Shown here: one piece after another, positions 5,402-50,043 of the stretch
Layout of the letters: each line of letters begins with the position of its first letter
Numbering within the stretch: the stretch's first letter is position 1
Translations under genes and position numbers: made by a program
Source: Bdellovibrionales bacterium
GTDB lineage: Bacteria; Bdellovibrionota; Bdellovibrionia; Bdellovibrionales; CAYMLA01
Length of the DNA: 64,000 nucleotides
Assembly: GCA_965217115.1 (NCBI GenBank)
Contig: OZ244239.1
Location: forward strand, 1,216,001-1,280,000
Reading direction: 5' to 3'
Notes under the pieces: model-generated
What the model was told of the DNA's origin: nothing
What the model saw: the letters and a program-made list of their open reading frames with translations, nothing else
Database searches by the model: none

Positions 5402-7531
<2,130 letters not shown>

Positions 7532-7620
7532 CACCAAGCCCTTTTGCAAAGAAATATCGACTGGCTACGTAGCTCGTTTAGAGAGCATCGTAACCATCAA
7601 TATTTAAAAAATTTCTGTTT

Positions 7621-7815
7621 TTATATATGATCAATTTTAATATCTCTAGCCATAACTGTTTTACGACCTTCTGATTTTGCCGACTCAACAGCTCTATTAC
7701 AAAGAGCCTCAATCGCTTGGCTTAACACTTCAATTGTCTCTCCCGAAGTATTACATCCACCGTTTTCTTTAATAAATTTCTTAACCTTACTCGTTACTAC
7801 AAGAACTTCTGCCAT
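7621..7815 (-). CDS. Bacterial histone-fold protein (Bd0055/HBb-like singlet histone)
   Basis: 64 aa; helix-loop-long helix-loop-short helix pattern with the histone-fold L2 motif GRKTVMARD; closely resembles B. bacteriovorus Bd0055 as recalled; GAGGAG RBS. Confidence 0.92.
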   Translation of the reverse strand: MAEVLVVTSKVKKFIKENGGCNTSGETIEVLSQAIEALCNRAVESAKSEGRKTVMARDIKIDHI

Positions 7816-8033
7816 TTTAAATCTCCTCTCAGAATATGATCATTAAACTCAATAGAGCTGAAAAGCTCCCAATTTTCACTTGAGCTTAAAGGATTCGTGA
7901 AATGAAAACAAAGCAAATTTGAGAAGAAAGACAAATCCTCGAAATTCCAAGACGATGCACTGCGTTTTTCTCTGTTCAACGCGTTGCGCGTGGCACAGAG
8001 AGTGACTGTAAAACTCGATTTAAGGCTTCGTTC

Positions 8034-10301
8034 TTAAAAAACACTCTTTCTAGACGAATCAACCACGCTAATATTCTGGGTCTCTAAAAACACCGCCTCT
8101 CCATAGGGACTGTCATAACTATCGTGAACAATCACATTGTTGAGCCCTTGAGGCGCATTAAAGATAAGAAAGTAGCCCTCAGCAACTCCTCCATCCAAAG
8201 ATAGCTCACCATCTTGACTGAAGTAGGCCACAGAGGTTTCTTCCCGTCGATGGGAAAGCGTTACTTTATACTCTGAATGAACACCCCAACCAAAAACAAC
8301 TCCTGTCTCAGGCAGAGATTCAATTTTTAAACGCTTCCTTGTTTTTTCTAACCACTCTTTTGATATTCTTGGCACTCGCAGGTATTGACTCTGGGGCTTC
8401 AACGTTGACACGGTTGCCATCAAATCAAGAGTTGCTGAGGTTTCAACATAAGTCGGCCCCACGGTCTTAGGCACCTTTAACAACATTTTGTCCTTCGTCC
8501 ACACGGGACGATCTACACTGCTAAAATAAACATCTGGTTCTTGCCGCCCCTTCTTTCCTTCAAAAGAAAACCGAACATTCCTATATTCTGGAGCCCTGAG
8601 TTCAACGGTCGAGACGTGTCCATTTTGCACAGCCACCATTTCCGTTGGCCACTCCTCCCGCCCTTCTCCTTCTCCGTAAATAACTTTAATTCCTTGTATA
8701 CCTTCATCTAAATTTAAAATCTGATCACTCCTATCGCGACGACCGACAATGATAAACTCACCATTACTCGATGTCTGAGTTAAAGACCCATCCGGGAGGA
8801 ATCCACTAAAGTAATAAACACGACTGTTCGGGTCGCTCGCCACAACTTTAGCCTGCGCCAACGGGTTTCCCTGTAAATCAACGACTTTCCCCCAGACGAT
8901 AGCACCCTCTGAATTATCAGTTAATTCAGGAATCCAATCCTCCAATAAACTTAGTAGGGTTTCCGAAAAAGCTTTCTTCTCGGTTTTTTCCTGAAACCCT
9001 ATCCATGATATTGTTTTTCTTTTCTGATGAGATTCTTTTCCATTTTTTAAAATTGAAACAATAAAAGAATCCCTACGCCATGTCTGTTCTTCCTCTTTTC
9101 CATCAGTCGCTTCTTTTTTTATCAAATCTAAGTTTATATCTAGAGAAATCTTTTCTAACTCTCCCCTAGACACCTTCTCTATCTGAGAACGGACGTCTCC
9201 ATTCAAAAGAGATGTTTTTTGATGACCAAGCACTTCTCCTTTGTCATTAAGCAAAACCCCCTCTATGTATCCCTCATCTCCTTTAAAAGATATTTCATAG
9301 CGCCCTTCATTTAGCCAAACAACGCCTTTCTCTAAAATCTCTCCCTCGAAAGTACGATAAACAAATAAAGAAGAACCTTCAGCTAAAGCCAGCCCATTGA
9401 CCACCGAAATCTCCCCCCTTAAAACAACCAAATCCCTCTGCCTGTCCCTGTCTTCATTGGCAAAAGAGTAAATCTTCGCTCGAATTTTAGGCTGAGACTC
9501 AGAAAAATACGCCTGTTCACGGCTTCTCTGCGTTGAAGGTGTTCGCCTATTATTGCTTGCGTAATGATTATTTTTAAACGACTGACTCTGTTGATTTAAC
9601 GCTGGACTATTAACATAAACCACTGGTTGACCTTGAGAGTCTTTAATCCACCTTTCACCATTCCTTGAATCTTCTTCTTTTAACTCCTTAGATATTTCCT
9701 CTCGTAAGCGCACCTGAAAACTTGGCTGAGCTGGAGTTGATAGTTCCACTTCTTCGATTCCTCTAGTCAACGCCCAGCGCCTTTTTAACTCTTCACTAAG
9801 AAAAGGCTGACGTTCTTGCCTATAGTCGTTTTCCGAAAAAGACTCTTCTCTTAAACCAGAAACATTAATTTGCTCTTCTGACAGAGAAATAGCAGGTGAA
9901 GTATTTTGAATCTCTCTTCTAGCAAAGGTTACAACAGCTGGCCGTGCAATTCCTTCAGCCTTAAGAACAAGGGTTTTTGATGAACTTACTTGTAACACCT
10001 CAGGAAGTAGTTCCAATACCCTAGGCCTTTTCTCTTTGCCTTGAAACATCTGCGGACTTATCTCTTCAACTCCTGCAGATAAATGCATCTCTCTCTTTCC
10101 TTGCAAATAAATTTTATGGCTTACTTGCAAGTTAACATCATTAAGAGCAGCAAAAGAAGGCGCTGTTTTAGAAAGAAGAATCACTAAAGGTCTGTGAAAG
10201 CTGATCCATCTATTTTTTTTGGAAACCAACGGCGTAGACAACATACACGTCACTATCACTGCTACAAACCTTTTTTTTCCAACCATTTCAATGCCTGTCA
10301 A
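8034..10301 (-). CDS. Large exported hypothetical protein with carboxypeptidase-regulatory-like beta domains
   Basis: 755-aa ORF, hydrophobic N-terminus, VWGKVVDLQGNPLAQAKV...TQTSSNGEF motif. Confidence 0.6.
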   Translation of the reverse strand: MTGIEMVGKKRFVAVIVTCMLSTPLVSKKNRWISFHRPLVILLSKTAPSFAALNDVNLQVSHKIYLQGKREMHLSAGVEEISPQMFQGKEKRPRVLELLPEVLQVSSSKTLVLKAEGIARPAVVTFARREIQNTSPAISLSEEQINVSGLREESFSENDYRQERQPFLSEELKRRWALTRGIEEVELSTPAQPSFQVRLREEISKELKEEDSRNGERWIKDSQGQPVVYVNSPALNQQSQSFKNNHYASNNRRTPSTQRSREQAYFSESQPKIRAKIYSFANEDRDRQRDLVVLRGEISVVNGLALAEGSSLFVYRTFEGEILEKGVVWLNEGRYEISFKGDEGYIEGVLLNDKGEVLGHQKTSLLNGDVRSQIEKVSRGELEKISLDINLDLIKKEATDGKEEEQTWRRDSFIVSILKNGKESHQKRKTISWIGFQEKTEKKAFSETLLSLLEDWIPELTDNSEGAIVWGKVVDLQGNPLAQAKVVASDPNSRVYYFSGFLPDGSLTQTSSNGEFIIVGRRDRSDQILNLDEGIQGIKVIYGEGEGREEWPTEMVAVQNGHVSTVELRAPEYRNVRFSFEGKKGRQEPDVYFSSVDRPVWTKDKMLLKVPKTVGPTYVETSATLDLMATVSTLKPQSQYLRVPRISKEWLEKTRKRLKIESLPETGVVFGWGVHSEYKVTLSHRREETSVAYFSQDGELSLDGGVAEGYFLIFNAPQGLNNVIVHDSYDSPYGEAVFLETQNISVVDSSRKSVF

Positions 10302-17333: not shown

Positions 17334-17439
17334 ACTTACAATTTACGAGACTACTTGAAGGAAGGAAAGGACGAAGATCGAGAGCTTGACCTAAGTGAAG
17401 TCTATGGTAAAGAAACCTTATGAATGTCCAGGTCTATCA

Positions 17440-18078
17440 GTGTTGAAAATAAATGAGATTTTCTACAGCATTCAAGGGGAATCTTCCTATTCTGGACTTC
17501 CAACCGTTTTTGTTAGAACAACAGGGTGTCATCTCCGCTGCACCTACTGTGACACGACCTACTCCTACTATGAAGGAACAAAATACGATTCCGATAAAAT
17601 CATCGAACAAGTTCTTTCCTATGGGACTAAATACGTTTGCATTACAGGGGGGGAGCCTCTCTTACAAGAAGACGTCTTTAGCTTAATGACAGAGCTCTGT
17701 GATCACGGGCTTGTCCTCTCACTCGAAACCAGCGGATCTATCTCTTGTGAAAAAGTTGACCCACGGGTAAAAATTATTTTAGACATTAAAACCCCAGACA
17801 GCGGAGCTGAGGGCTGTTTCCTGTTGGAAAACCTCAATCTTTGTAATGTCAATACCGAAATTAAATTTGTTATTTGTTCAGAAAAAGATTGGCTCTGGTC
17901 AGTGGAATTTTGCAAAACCCATCAACTATTTGAAAAGTTTATTGTTTTATTCAGCCCCTCTTTTTCAGAAATTGACAACCAGTGGCTTGCAAAAAAAATT
18001 CTTTCTAAAAAACTAAATGCAAGGTTGCAATTACAGCTTCATAAGTATATTTGGTCACCTGAAACTAAAAGTGTATGA
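17440..18078 (+). CDS. queE: 7-carboxy-7-deazaguanine synthase (radical SAM)
   Basis: EIFYSIQGE, CHLRCTYCD, TGGEPL, QLHKYIW. Confidence 0.9.
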   Translation: MLKINEIFYSIQGESSYSGLPTVFVRTTGCHLRCTYCDTTYSYYEGTKYDSDKIIEQVLSYGTKYVCITGGEPLLQEDVFSLMTELCDHGLVLSLETSGSISCEKVDPRVKIILDIKTPDSGAEGCFLLENLNLCNVNTEIKFVICSEKDWLWSVEFCKTHQLFEKFIVLFSPSFSEIDNQWLAKKILSKKLNARLQLQLHKYIWSPETKSV

Positions 18079-18146
18079 ACAATTTCAACATGCAAAAGCA
18101 CCGCCGCTCTGACTTTTCACAAATAAAAGCATGTTTAGGAGCAGCA

Positions 18147-18446
18147 ATGACCCCAGACCTAAATATTTCCGATAACCTCCTCGTTGCCAATTTAAAGTCT
18201 GTCAGCCTAGAAAGACTCGTTAAGAGCAAATTGAAGGTTTTCTTCGATCAACAAAAAAAGACGAACGTTGAGCTCAACGGAGTCTATTCCTTCGTACTTG
18301 AACAGGTTGAAAAACCCTTAATTGAACTCGCTCTACAGGCCAGCAACGGCAATCAAGTCCGAGCAGCTAACCTCCTTGGAATTAACCGCAACACTTTAAA
18401 AAAGAAAATTGATACTTACGATATCTCTGTGCATAAGAGCCCTTAA
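18147..18446 (+). CDS. fis: Fis-family helix-turn-helix DNA-binding protein
   Basis: VLEQVEKPLI...GNQVRAANLLGINRNTLKKKI; AGGAG before ATG 18147; 99 aa. Confidence 0.75.
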   Translation: MTPDLNISDNLLVANLKSVSLERLVKSKLKVFFDQQKKTNVELNGVYSFVLEQVEKPLIELALQASNGNQVRAANLLGINRNTLKKKIDTYDISVHKSP

Positions 18447-28761: not shown

Positions 28762-29271
28762 CTAATACTCAGTCAATACTTTTTTTTCATTGATGCTAAA
28801 CTCTGTCGAGTAGCCGTATGCGCCAGTCGTCACAAGATTCTCCGAATTGGTCGTCCGAGTCGCGCAAGCAGTAAATTTGCTGGGGCCAGGCATACAGACC
28901 CCTTGGACATACGAGAACGCAGTGTAGGGGGTAGTGAGAAAACTCACCCCCTGGGTGTAGAGGCTCGGCGCGGTACCCCCAATATTTATACCAAAACCAA
29001 TTCGACCAAAATACTTTAACGGAACAGGCTCCAATCCAATCTCTGAAAGATCCCCAGAGTAGGTCTCATATTGAGCATAATGAGTCTTCTCTGCCGTGTA
29101 TATTCCGGATAAAACACCCTTTACCTCTGCTTTCTCGGCTCTCTCTATATAACCCTCGTAGCCTGGGACAGCAATGGCTGCCAACACGCCAATAATGGCC
29201 ACTACAACCATCAGCTCGACTAAAGAGAACCCCGCCGCTCTGGAAAGGATTTTAATTTTTCTAGAATCCAT
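28762..29271 (-). CDS. Type IVa pilin-like protein, copy 1
   Basis: Prepilin cleavage site AAG|FSLVELMVVVAIIGVLAAIAVP with E5; C-x9-C near the C-terminus. Confidence 0.92.
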   Translation of the reverse strand: MDSRKIKILSRAAGFSLVELMVVVAIIGVLAAIAVPGYEGYIERAEKAEVKGVLSGIYTAEKTHYAQYETYSGDLSEIGLEPVPLKYFGRIGFGINIGGTAPSLYTQGVSFLTTPYTAFSYVQGVCMPGPSKFTACATRTTNSENLVTTGAYGYSTEFSINEKKVLTEY

Positions 29272-29499: not shown

Positions 29500-30006
29500 C
29501 TAATACTCTCTGAACACTTTTTTTTCATTGATGCTAAACTCTGTCTTCTGACCGAAAGCATTAACAAACAGCACATTAGTCGAGTCGGTCGTCCGAGTAG
29601 CGCAAGCATTAAATCCGCCGGGGCGAACCATACACACCTCTGGGCTATACCCTGACACAATGTAGGGGGCAGTGCCAAAACTCACCCCATGGGTGTAGAG
29701 ACTCGGCGTGGCCCGAGTGTTTGTAGAAAAACCAATTAGACCAAAATACTTTAACGGAACAGGCTCCAATCCAATCTCTGAAAGATCCCCAGAGTAGGTA
29801 TCATATTGAGCATAATGAGCCTTCTCTGCCGTGTATATTCCCGATAAAATAGCCTTTACCTCTGCTTTCTCGGCTCTCTCTATATAACCCTCGTAGCCTG
29901 GGACAGCAATGGCTGCCAACACGCCAATAATGGCCACTACAACCATCAGCTCGACTAAAGAGAACCCCGCCGCTCTGGAAAGGGTTTTAATTCTTCTAGA
30001 ATCCAT
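29500..30006 (-). CDS. Type IVa pilin-like protein, copy 2
   Basis: Same N-methylation motif; C-x9-C; divergent C-terminal loops. Confidence 0.92.
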   Translation of the reverse strand: MDSRRIKTLSRAAGFSLVELMVVVAIIGVLAAIAVPGYEGYIERAEKAEVKAILSGIYTAEKAHYAQYDTYSGDLSEIGLEPVPLKYFGLIGFSTNTRATPSLYTHGVSFGTAPYIVSGYSPEVCMVRPGGFNACATRTTDSTNVLFVNAFGQKTEFSINEKKVFREY

Positions 30007-30240: not shown

Positions 30241-30765
30241 CTAATACTCAGTCAGTTCTTTTTTTTCATTGATGCTAAACTCTGTCAGGAGGCCTTGGCC
30301 AGCACCCCAAACATCGGAGTGATCGGTCGTCCGAGTCGCGCAAGCAGTAAAATTTCCTCTGCCAGCCATACAAAGATTTTCGTGATACATGTTCACAAGG
30401 AGGTATGAATCGGTAAAACCCACCGTCTGGCTGTAGAGGTGGTTCGACCCGGGTTCTTCCGATTCAAAAATATAATCGTAGGCACCAAAACCAATTAGAC
30501 CAAAATGCTTTAACTGAACAGGCTCCAATCCTATCGCTGAAAGATCCCCAGAGTAAATATTATATTGAGCATAGTAGGTCTTCTCTGCTCCATATATTCC
30601 GGATAAAATAGCTTTTACCTCTACACTCTCGGCTCTCTTTATATAACCCTTGTAGCCTGGGACAGCAACGCTTGCTAACACGCCAATAATGGCCACTACA
30701 ACCATCAACTCGACTAAAGAGAACCCCAGCTCACTGGGAAGGTTTTTAATTCTTCCAAAATCCAT
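30241..30765 (-). CDS. Type IVa pilin-like protein, copy 3
   Basis: ELG|FSLVELMVVVAIIGVLASVAVP; C-x9-C; most divergent copy. Confidence 0.92.
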   Translation of the reverse strand: MDFGRIKNLPSELGFSLVELMVVVAIIGVLASVAVPGYKGYIKRAESVEVKAILSGIYGAEKTYYAQYNIYSGDLSAIGLEPVQLKHFGLIGFGAYDYIFESEEPGSNHLYSQTVGFTDSYLLVNMYHENLCMAGRGNFTACATRTTDHSDVWGAGQGLLTEFSINEKKELTEY

Positions 30766-48128: not shown

Positions 48129-48358
48129 CTCTTTTTTCCATCCTTTATTTACTATATATTATTAATATTATTAATAAGTAGAAGTAGTAGTGGTGTAGAT
48201 TGTGTGTGTTTCTTGTCAACCCTTCGAAAACACTTAATAATTACTGTGGATATCTCACTTCATATTCCCCTTGTCTATTCTATTTTTTTGTTAATAAGTT
48301 TAATCCACAAATTTGATAACACGTTTTTACACAGAGTTTTCCACAGAGGTTATCTACA
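48129..48358. other. Chromosomal replication origin (oriC) between dnaA and dnaN
   Basis: DnaA-box-like 9-mers at 48245 (reverse), 48301, 48325, 48337 and 48350; TAG-type trio run at ~48176-48192; AT-rich DUE at ~48145-48178; gene orientation diverges around this region. Confidence 0.85.
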
Positions 48359-49757
48359 TCCCTGTGATATTGTGGATTTTATTTGTTAACTCCTCGATAT
48401 CTCGTTTTAAATCTAAATTTTTCGTCTGTAGATTCGTTATTTTTCGGACGGCACTAATAACGGTCGTATGATCTCTGCCACCAAACGCCCGGCCAATATC
48501 TACAAGGGACTTATCTAAGTGTTTTTTTATTAAATACATAGCAACTTGACGCGCTATAACAACAGGTTTTGATCGTCCTTTGGATTTTAATTCTGAAATT
48601 TTAATGTCGTAATGCTCAGAGGCCAGTTTTTGAATTTCCTCTAAGCTGATAGAGGCTGGGTCGTCATGAATTGAGAGGATTTTTTTAGCAATTTCTAAGT
48701 TCATTTTAAGGCCCTGTAACTCGGCAAACATTTTAACCTTATTTAAATTTCCCTCAAGCTCACGAATTGATCTTTTTGAAATCCGTGAAATATAATTTAT
48801 AACCTCCCCAGGAAGGGAAAAACCAATTTGCTCGGCTTTATAACGCAAGATAGCAATGCGAGTTTCAAGGTCGGGCATTTGAATATCAGCAATTAAACCC
48901 CACTCTAAGCGCGAGCGAATACGATCTTCTAAACCATTAATATCTTTAGGCATTCGGTCACTTGCAACGACAACTTGCAGGTTTTTTTCAAAAAAATGAT
49001 TAATTGTGTGAAAAAATTCCTCAGGGGTCGCCTGCCCGCGACCAAGAAATTGACCGTCATCCATTAGCAAAACATCACATTGATTGCGAAATTTATTTCG
49101 AAAACTTTCCATGGTTTTTCTATGGATATTAGAGACGACTTCATTCATAAATCTTTCAGCGGAGATATAAACAACCCTTAATTCAGGCCTATTCTCTCGA
49201 ATCTGGTTACCAACAGCATTTAGTAAATGAGTTTTTCCCATTCCTACAGGGCCGCAAATAAAGAGAGGATTATAACCACCGACACCTGGGTTTTGAGCGA
49301 CGTTGTAAGAAGCTGCGTGGGCAAACTCATTATTTCGACCAACAACAAAGGTTGAAAAAGAGTAATTCCGATTAAGGGCATCTTGCCGAGATGGAGGTTT
49401 TTTTAACTGTGGGCTCTGTTGAGAATCAATACTTTGGACTTCAGACCCGTCTCCTTCAGGTTTGAGAGGGGCTTGCGTCTGTCCCGTCACTTCAAATTCA
49501 ATTTCGAAGCCCCCCTTGTAAACAGCTGAAATCTCTAGGCAGATTCTGTCAAAAAGATTTTCTATTATCCAATACTTGTGGAGTTTTGTAGGCACTCCGA
49601 GGCGCATCTTAGAGTGGCCATTTTTATCAGTTATCACAGAGATCAACTCAGTTGGCTCAAACCAAGTTTGAAGTAATTTATTGTTAGAGTTTTTAATTTT
49701 AAGACTATTCTTAATTGCGGACCAAAGTTCTTTATTTTCGTTTAATTCAATTTCCAA
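48354..49757 (-). CDS. dnaA: Chromosomal replication initiator DnaA
   Basis: YNPLFICGPVGMGKTHL, EEFFHT, RELEG, FGGRDHTTV; probable TTG start after AGAGAGG (ORF track extends to 49811). Confidence 0.98.
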   Translation of the reverse strand: MEIELNENKELWSAIKNSLKIKNSNNKLLQTWFEPTELISVITDKNGHSKMRLGVPTKLHKYWIIENLFDRICLEISAVYKGGFEIEFEVTGQTQAPLKPEGDGSEVQSIDSQQSPQLKKPPSRQDALNRNYSFSTFVVGRNNEFAHAASYNVAQNPGVGGYNPLFICGPVGMGKTHLLNAVGNQIRENRPELRVVYISAERFMNEVVSNIHRKTMESFRNKFRNQCDVLLMDDGQFLGRGQATPEEFFHTINHFFEKNLQVVVASDRMPKDINGLEDRIRSRLEWGLIADIQMPDLETRIAILRYKAEQIGFSLPGEVINYISRISKRSIRELEGNLNKVKMFAELQGLKMNLEIAKKILSIHDDPASISLEEIQKLASEHYDIKISELKSKGRSKPVVIARQVAMYLIKKHLDKSLVDIGRAFGGRDHTTVISAVRKITNLQTKNLDLKRDIEELTNKIHNITGM

Positions 49758-50043
49758 TAGGGCCTCTCTTACGCTGATCGTATTTATTCTTGATGCACAC
49801 GCAAAAACCAAGCCTAAATTGGATCTATGTATGATTTATAGGGTGCTTTTACTAAGATGATAAAATTCTGAAATTTTGTCTAGATGTGATTTTTGAAGGT
49901 CATAACAGAGATAAAGTGACTTTTCAATACCTTGACCTGTTTGCTGCAATGTGCTTTTATCCTGGCTTAATTTAATAAGCCTAAAGAAAAAAATAAATAA
50001 CTTACGTTTATATGGCATTATTTCTAATCAGGAGTCTTTAGAT

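Follow-up and report, generated by a model that had tools for sequence, protein, structure and literature searches.

What does the short open reading frame at positions 7621..7815 of the DNA stretch studied here encode, and how would its product act on DNA? The stretch, which we call the window, comprises 64 kb from the genome of a bacterium of the Bdellovibrionales (CAYMLA01; contig OZ244239.1, positions 1,216,001 to 1,280,000). An initial annotation made from these letters alone had proposed that the gene encodes a bacterial histone closely resembling Bd0055, also called HBb, of Bdellovibrio bacteriovorus HD100. Several structures of the latter are available (PDB 8FVX, 8FW7, 8CMP, 9EZZ, and 9F0E) and were used here as the main point of comparison.

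HBb ranks 12th among 2,125 quantified proteins and is the top protein of the nucleoid fraction, and attempts to delete its gene failed in two laboratories (PMC10627809, PMC11317129). The protein has a short alpha2 helix and a one-turn alpha3, is a dimer in solution, and binds DNA via its L1-L2 surface and the start of alpha1 with no sequence preference (PMC10627809, PMC11317129). The initial annotation had summarized this literature as describing an abundant, probably essential dimer that does not form nucleosomes, in agreement with both papers. However, the binding mode is disputed, i.e., a sheath on straight DNA (PMC10627809) versus a bend of ca. 84 degrees (PMC11317129), and a 2025 preprint states that the in vivo function of HBb is still unknown (10.1101/2025.09.24.678257).

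A compact gene with a strong ribosome-binding site

The gene and its immediate upstream signals are as follows:

7621..7815, minus strand: coding sequence, with its stop codon, for a singlet histone of HBb/Bd0055 type and 64 aa in length, assigned from the open reading frame, phmmer, PF00808, and the predicted fold and dimer
7823..7827, minus strand: Shine-Dalgarno sequence AGGAG, 7 nt 5' of the histone ATG, read from the sequence
7816..8033, minus strand: 218-bp upstream intergenic region, from its sequence the presumed site of the histone's own promoter

The ATG at 7815-7813 is the first start codon past the upstream in-frame stop (stop-to-stop frame 7624..7839), and the reading frame ends with a TAA at 7623-7621; its 64-aa translation is identical to the one given initially. 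The strong ribosome-binding site claimed for the gene is likewise found, with AGGAG at 7827-7823, and a GGAG motif lies at most 20 nt from the histone start in 73 of 78 upstream regions of related loci (the window among them). In eight of the related loci (L007, L021, L035, L039, L045, L048, L059, and L076), an in-frame ATG upstream of the conserved MA(E/D)VL start results in open reading frames of 66-96 aa. Gene callers may over-extend the histone, e.g., in a database protein of 93 aa (P0103).

A scan of the minus strand from 7300 to 8200 gave no sigma-70-like site, and the best sigma-70-like matches in the 78 histone upstream regions showed no positional clustering. A terminator-like hairpin with six pairs and a T-rich tail is located at 7869-7854 (minus strand), ca. 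40 nt 5' of the histone start, although one such site upstream of the histone compared to 0.7 expected may mean nothing. No Rfam family matched anywhere in the 64-kb window at gathering thresholds.

Sequence comparisons point to an orthologue of HBb

When all PDB chains were searched with phmmer, HBb was by far the best match to the window histone (E 1.8e-25 for 8FVX/8FW7 and 2.1e-25 for the form in 8CMP/9EZZ/9F0E). The alignment covers all 64 residues without gaps, and 49 of them (77%) are identical, so that the resemblance to Bd0055 noticed at the outset extends over the full length of the protein. The next matches were far weaker, i.e., the archaeal histone HTkC (1.3e-6), HLp (2.9e-5), HMfA (0.014), and HMfB (0.21). 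Among Pfam families, PF00808 was the only one above its cut-off (26.2 bits vs. 21.4), while the NCBIfam model NF043032 (archaea_histone) scored 35.9 bits and thus stayed under its cut-off of 50. With 64 aa in total, the protein comprises a single tail-less histone fold and no extra domains.

Relatives are encoded in at least 241 genome stretches in a scan with one genome per species. We kept the best 80 of these 241, which are labelled as Bdellovibrionales or Bdellovibrionota except for one metagenome-assembled genome named "Proteobacteria bacterium"; residue counts cover 79 loci, since the gene of one (L031) runs off its contig end. Given an E-value of 1.8e-25 over 64 residues and these 241 genome stretches, the match to the HBb type is far beyond chance. 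These results support the view that the gene encodes a tail-less singlet histone-fold orthologue of B. bacteriovorus Bd0055/HBb. By its clustering with HBb, the window histone would fall into the "bacterial dimer" type of alpha3-truncated histones, a category that was itself defined by sequence clustering (Schwab et al. 2024, PMC11390915).

The assignment of the gene to a recently described rather than a new family can be upheld as well, because Bd0055/HBb-type histones have been in print since 2023-2024. Histone homologues were reported for 67% of Bdellovibrionota genomes (Hocher et al. 2023, PMC10627809), so that in a known family of this spread the window histone appears to be the expected orthologue. 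Beyond correct annotation, the significance of the locus is consequently small, because publications since 2023-2024 already describe this family together with its structure, the way it binds DNA, and how widely it occurs in Bdellovibrionota. The naming of orthologues is nevertheless still inconsistent across database clusters: among the 120 clusters listed, 5 are called "hypothetical protein", 15 "histone H3/H4", and 3 "NFYB/HAP3 family transcription factor subunit", with the rest unnamed.

Searches of protein databases widened this picture. A word-indexed protein collection contained 726 relatives, the closest of which are 91% and 88% identical to the window histone, and an exhaustive search of 1.84 billion cluster representatives returned 604 matches at E <= 0.001, including 68 at E <= 1e-10. 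Many top representatives of 50% clusters are 120-270 aa long and match the 64-aa query twice (P0121, P0122, P0126, P0127, P0132, and others). These proteins look like HBb-like histone-fold doublets or fusions; histone doublets are mentioned as a class by Hocher et al. (PMC10627809).

DNA-contacting and dimer-core residues of HBb are kept

The window histone shares with HBb the length of 64 aa, the N-terminus MAEVLVVTSK, the S9-K10 pair, the alpha1 lysines, the RKTV motif, the RD clamp, the dimer core, and all side-chain DNA contacts, as well as, by prediction, the short alpha2, the one-turn alpha3, and dimer formation. At the level of individual residues, the DNA contacts T8, S9, K10, K12, K16, N22, T23, S24, K52, T53, and R57 are kept, and the sole listed contact that has changed is A25, a backbone contact, which is Gly in the window histone. 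The dimer core (V11, L31, I35, L38, and I59) and the RD clamp formed by R51 and D58 are retained. As initially read, R51-K52-T53-V54 and D58 are all present in the translation and give the RKTxxxD motif; S9, K10, K12, K13, and K16 are found as well. Across orthologues, C39, R51, K52, T53, V54, R57, and D58 as well as K10, K13, and K16 are invariant in 79 of 79 loci.

Differences from HBb are confined to 15 substitutions at positions 14, 18, 20, 21, 25, 29, 33, 37, 40, 41, 42, 48, 49, 60, and 64, including M21C, A25G, G42A, A48S, D49E, and V60K. This copy from a deep lineage thus shows which residues of HBb are tolerant of change (15 of 64) versus intolerant. In HBb, D49 and R51 are joined by an additional salt bridge (Hu et al. 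2024, PMC11317129). The window histone has Glu at position 49; the residue is Asp in 79 of 79 loci. Three other positions bear on DNA wrapping, because the substitutions S45F, A48H, and I61L let Bd0055 bring DNA ends together or wrap DNA (Hocher et al., PMC10627809). At these sites, the window histone has S45, S48, and I61.

We also considered A42, E49, and K60 as possible features unique to the window histone given that all three are absent from the 79 orthologue loci, and rejected this idea because they recur in closer or wider relatives. A42 is found in the closest database relatives (5 of 110) and is the majority residue of the wider family (122 of 150), E49 occurs in 10 of the 110 closest database proteins and 13 of the 150 wider-family representatives, and K60 in 1 of 110. 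Since they are found again in other relatives, these residues seem to be lineage-level variation.

Structure prediction yields a histone-type homodimer

An AlphaFold2 monomer model built on 111 aligned sequences reached moderate confidence (pLDDT 77.4, pTM 0.54) and has helices at residues 9-19 and 24-48 followed by one turn at 56-58. Counting this turn, it comprises three helices and two loops. The very short alpha3 that had been proposed from the sequence thus appears in the model as a single helical turn, and the prediction (pLDDT 77.4) matches the truncated alpha3 (3-4 residues) and short alpha2 of the HBb type. A Foldseek search with this model gave five PDB matches at E <= 0.001, all of them HBb chains (E 1.2e-5 to 4.1e-5, TM 0.55-0.62), followed by HTkC (1.4e-2) and HMfA (3.1e-2). 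The superposition on HBb has an rmsd of ca. 5 Å, and such a modest fit may be expected because this is the monomer model of an obligate dimer.

Predicting two copies together resulted in a homodimer with an ipSAE of 0.66 (0.67, 0.64, and 0.66 in the individual runs) compared to 0.00 for the best of three controls. Of the proteins that had been solved as one-chain pairs, 20 of 30 reached the mark used for this score, compared to 1 of 23 among those known as single chains. The dimer runs agreed in at least 94% of contacts with a partner pLDDT of at least 81. Predicted contacts between the chains include 31-35', 38-31', 39 with 11', 14', and 15', and 21-24 with 52-54', i.e., alpha2 pairs with alpha2' and L1 with L2' in an interface of the histone handshake type. 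The initial annotation had made a handshake dimer in structure prediction a touchstone of its reading, and a histone-type homodimer is what the models show. We take this result to indicate likeness to the HBb dimer rather than binding, and it may reflect the memory of the model because HBb dimers have already been solved (8FVX and 8CMP).

The window histone would most probably bend DNA as a dimer

We consider it very probable that the window histone is an HBb orthologue that forms a handshake dimer, binds the backbone of the DNA minor groove non-specifically, and bends DNA without wrapping it. This explanation was chosen because the HBb contacts, core, and clamp are kept and because the window histone has S45, S48, and I61. 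Most likely, two 64-aa chains would associate via their antiparallel alpha2 helices into a histone-fold handshake dimer, each end of which would present an L1-L2' surface composed of N22, T23, S24, K52', T53', and R57'. The start of alpha1 would add T8, S9, K10, K12, and K16 to this DNA-binding surface, which would touch phosphates of the backbone on both sides of the minor groove regardless of sequence. The dimer would bend DNA locally with an effect resembling that of HU or IHF, and the protein would probably be an abundant nucleoid-associated protein. The DNA binding, bending, oligomeric state, abundance, and essentiality that we ascribe to it are carried over from HBb, and we infer the histone-based chromatin suggested for the CAYMLA01 host from orthology only.

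HBb itself has been likened to HU/IHF by Hu et al. (PMC11317129) and Schwab et al. (PMC11390915). These proteins are functional analogues in that they are small, abundant, dimeric, and sequence-independent DNA benders, but their fold is unrelated. Among the open reading frames scanned in the 64-kb window, none was found to encode HU or IHF.

The main rival to bending is the sheath mode, in which dimers would bind end-on via a single L1-L2 interface and polymerise on straight DNA. This corresponds to the nucleohistone filament of Hocher et al. with about one dimer per 2.5 bp, for which these authors presented a co-crystal of Bd0055 with 35-bp DNA, DNA ends that gave no FRET signal, and a loading of over 60 dimers per 147 bp in analytical ultracentrifugation (PMC10627809). 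The window histone keeps the MAEVL N-terminus that dimers exchange with one another in the filament and the same L1-L2 residues. However, Hu et al. reported compaction in TPM, ligase-mediated circularisation, and constrained supercoils as evidence of bending, found no MNase protection, and obtained the 84 degree bend in molecular dynamics simulations (PMC11317129), and later papers of the same group continue to call HBb a bending dimer (PMC11390915, PMC12701072). In addition, the window histone differs from HBb at surface positions, i.e., K60 (V in HBb), S48 (A), and E49 (D), which may or may not affect contacts between dimers. On balance, we regard a sheath as unlikely for the window histone, though as clearly more plausible than any of the other alternatives discussed below.

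A bending dimer is also favored over a role in gene-specific regulation. PF00808 is the family of CBF/NF-Y and archaeal histones, and the three orthologue clusters named after NFYB/HAP3 could suggest a sequence-specific transcription factor subunit of NF-YB/HAP3 type without a general role in chromatin. However, this name derives solely from the Pfam family, all listed DNA contacts of HBb are with the backbone, and DAP-seq of HBb revealed genome-wide binding with no motif (PMC11317129). There is also no NF-YC-like partner or second histone-fold open reading frame in the window, where the search gave a single match among 771 six-frame open reading frames with the next at E 0.85. It is therefore very improbable that the protein is a transcription factor subunit of this kind. 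By the same search with an HBb-type HMM, no second histone resembling Bd3044 was found among the 771 six-frame window open reading frames of at least 35 aa, though a divergent type might escape it.

Wrapping of DNA as archaeal HMf-type tetramers and hypernucleosomes or in the manner of face-to-face (FtF) histones was the third alternative that we weighed. The window histone has the histone fold, the tail-less singlet architecture, the RKTV motif, the R-D clamp, and PF00808 in common with the archaeal histones HMfA, HMfB, and HTkA (1HTA, 1B67, 1A7W, and 5T5K). The alpha3 truncation and RD clamp are likewise found in the FtF histones HLp of Leptospira perolatii (9QT0-2) and HTkC of Thermococcus kodakarensis (9F2C), which form stable tetramers through the end of alpha2, L2, and alpha3 and wrap ca. 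60 bp (PMC12701072). The shared fold and RKTV/RD-clamp motif and the weak phmmer matches to HTkC, HLp, HMfA, and HMfB would fit with wrapping.

Foldseek and phmmer do match archaeal nucleosomal histones, though weakly. However, the alpha2 helix of the window histone lacks about one turn relative to theirs, and the model gives alpha3 a single turn where archaea have three. The archaeal tetramerisation His, which corresponds to A48 of HBb, is Ser in the window histone, and S45, S48, and I61 stand where F, H, and L made Bd0055 wrap DNA. Bacterial singlets do not conserve the sprocket arginine of archaeal histones either, as Hocher et al. state (PMC10627809). The window histone is far closer to HBb (E 1.8e-25), described as strictly dimeric (PMC12701072), than to any tetramer-forming histone; compared to the FtF histones, its E-value to HBb is better by ca. 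20 orders of magnitude. Since it is without a long alpha3 and the tetramerising His/Phe/Leu of archaea, nucleosome-like wrapping would not be expected, nor would hypernucleosomes, and we view this alternative as highly unlikely.

Cys21 and Cys39 occupy hydrophobic core positions

The initial annotation had highlighted Cys21 in loop 1, in addition to Cys39, as a variant worth testing. This does not hold for Cys21, which is the majority residue among orthologues of the Bdellovibrionales: position 21 is C in 65, M in 11, Y in 2, and F in 1 of the 79 loci, so that it is the Met of HBb that represents a minority. The 110 close database proteins carry C39 without exception and C21 in 109 cases. In 150 representatives of the wider family, position 21 is mostly occupied by M (84), L (38), F (15), or C (10) and position 39 by C (111), L (12), A (11), or I (8). 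According to the dimer model, C21 packs on V54', and C39 of alpha2 packs on alpha1' (11', 14', and 15') and touches residue 31'. The listed contacts do not include one of C21 with C39.

From these data, positions 21 and 39 appear to be ordinary hydrophobic core positions and a role in redox or metal chemistry is unlikely. A functional pair of Cys21 and Cys39 was rejected because of the substitution pattern and of a co-occurrence that is not beyond chance among the 150 wider-family representatives (both in 3, C39 only in 108, C21 only in 7, and neither in 32). As an alternative weaker still than the coupling with ligA considered below, the near-universal Cys39 and the Cys21 of most Bdellovibrionales might provide thiol chemistry that is unexamined in the studies on HBb; we found no discussion of the cysteines in the main texts of four histone papers (PMC10627809, PMC11317129, PMC11390915, and PMC12701072), though the supplements may cover them. 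That C21 and C39 make this protein a redox- or metal-responsive histone variant nonetheless seems extremely improbable to us despite the invariance of C39 in the 79 loci and 110 database proteins, because both positions take hydrophobic residues, the 14 loci that lack C21 carry M, Y, or F instead, and HBb works with Met at this position.

A conserved convergent arrangement with ligA

Downstream, the histone gene faces the gene of a DNA ligase:

5408..7531, plus strand: NAD-dependent DNA ligase LigA, convergent neighbour (NF005932, E 1.9e-232)
7552..7605, no strand assigned: long imperfect hairpin found by folding, a candidate (inferred) shared terminator of ligA and the histone gene

The stop codons of the two convergent genes are 89 bp apart. 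Examination of the relatives, as the initial annotation had suggested, revealed that convergence with ligA is a conserved trait of this locus, because it was found in 72 of 80 loci at distances of less than 400 bp (55 loci), 400-2000 bp (15), or further (2). In six of the eight loci without convergent ligA, the sequence stops within 1.5 kb downstream of the histone gene; of the 74 loci with sufficient flanking sequence, 72 thus have it. The other two (L021 and L032) truly have no adjacent convergent ligA despite 6.0 and 2.5 kb of downstream sequence, respectively.

The histone of the window is 70-81% identical to those of the best 80 loci. Proteins encoded around it are much less conserved across related loci (LigA 47-57%, Fsa 54-70%, DapB 34-49%, and Ppx 35-57% identity), which argues for strong purifying selection on the histone.

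The 54-nt hairpin at 7552-7605 has a folding energy of -25 kcal/mol (z -2.95) that is reached by 1 of 200 shuffled sequences, and it was not called by a rule-based terminator scan. The supply of histone might be tied to DNA ligase and replication load, either through convergent transcription or through a bidirectional terminator that both genes share; if true, this coupling would act during the multi-fork, filamentous growth of these predators. However, a functional unit of histone and ligA that goes beyond their conserved neighbourhood seems quite improbable to us. The main texts of PMC10627809 and PMC11317129 contain no discussion of ligA or synteny that we could find, though their supplements may differ, and the literature found for Bd0054, Bd0056, and BD_RS00255 says nothing about a histone-ligA arrangement. 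As far as the main texts go, the published picture thus gains two small points, this arrangement and the hydrophobicity of positions 21 and 39, both of which the supplements may already cover.

Position relative to the replication origin

The window contains rnpA-yidC on one side and the dnaA-dnaN-recF-gyrB-gyrA gene set on the other, with dnaA at 48354..49811 (minus strand) followed by dnaN, recF, and gyrB; gyrA is found in the window as well. The origin can be placed as follows:

48245..48358, no strand assigned: probable oriC between dnaA and dnaN with a cluster of four DnaA boxes, each with one mismatch (from the boxes, gene order, and GC skew)

The sign of the GC skew flips from the 48-50 kb bin to the 50-52 kb bin, and its minimum lies near 50 kb. 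Together with four DnaA boxes within ca. 115 bp, this suggests that the dnaA-dnaN gap is the probable oriC. The initial description of the histone gene as located near the origin is correct in a loose sense only: its ATG is ca. 40.4 kb from the DnaA-box cluster, and a distance of ca. 40 kb is ca. 2% of the 2,170,531-bp contig. The gene is transcribed away from the origin and thus co-directional with the replication fork.

Other chromosomes offer two hints at an origin-proximal position in relatives. In HD100, a point in the interior of Bd0054 lies at coordinate 48,168 according to a published paper. The histone gene is found ca. 50 kb from the start of the record in one complete Bdellovibrio chromosome and at 2.38 Mb of 3.92 Mb in another complete chromosome. 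Reading the HD100 and ca. 50-kb positions as hints of origin proximity assumes that both records start at dnaA.

A deep host lineage and other genes of the window

To place the host, we used LigA. A FastTree phylogeny had 65 rows, comprising the window and those 64 of the 80 loci whose LigA is nearly full-length, with the remaining 16 excluded. The LigA of the window falls into no supported clade; its branch is long (0.66), and it is at most 57% identical to any other row. Because of this long unplaced branch and low identity, the host seems to be a deep lineage of the Bdellovibrionales, and its GC content is ca. 40% compared to 50.5% for HD100. With a contig of 2.17 Mb, it appears to have a small, low-GC genome.

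Directly upstream of the histone gene, at 8034-10301 (minus strand), lies an open reading frame of 755 aa (orf755) that has a relative in the same position in 24 of 80 loci at 20-31% identity. No Pfam or NCBIfam family matched orf755 above cut-off, with a weak match to CarboxypepD_reg (E 0.0015), and its nearest Atlas cluster is a hypothetical protein of Bdellovibrionota (0.87), which we regard as a lead only.

Further into the window, at 18075-18446 (plus strand), a protein of 123 aa has a C-terminal helix-turn-helix of the Fis family (PF02954, E 3.1e-15), and its start overlaps the end of a radical-SAM open reading frame at 17395-18078. This protein is a second candidate for a nucleoid-associated protein, or a regulator, encoded in the origin-proximal region. 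Finally, three tandem genes for proteins of ca. 170 aa at 28762-29271, 29500-30006, and 30241-30765 (minus strand) each have an N-terminal prepilin methylation motif (PF07963), and this trio resembles paralogues of type IV pilins or pseudopilins.
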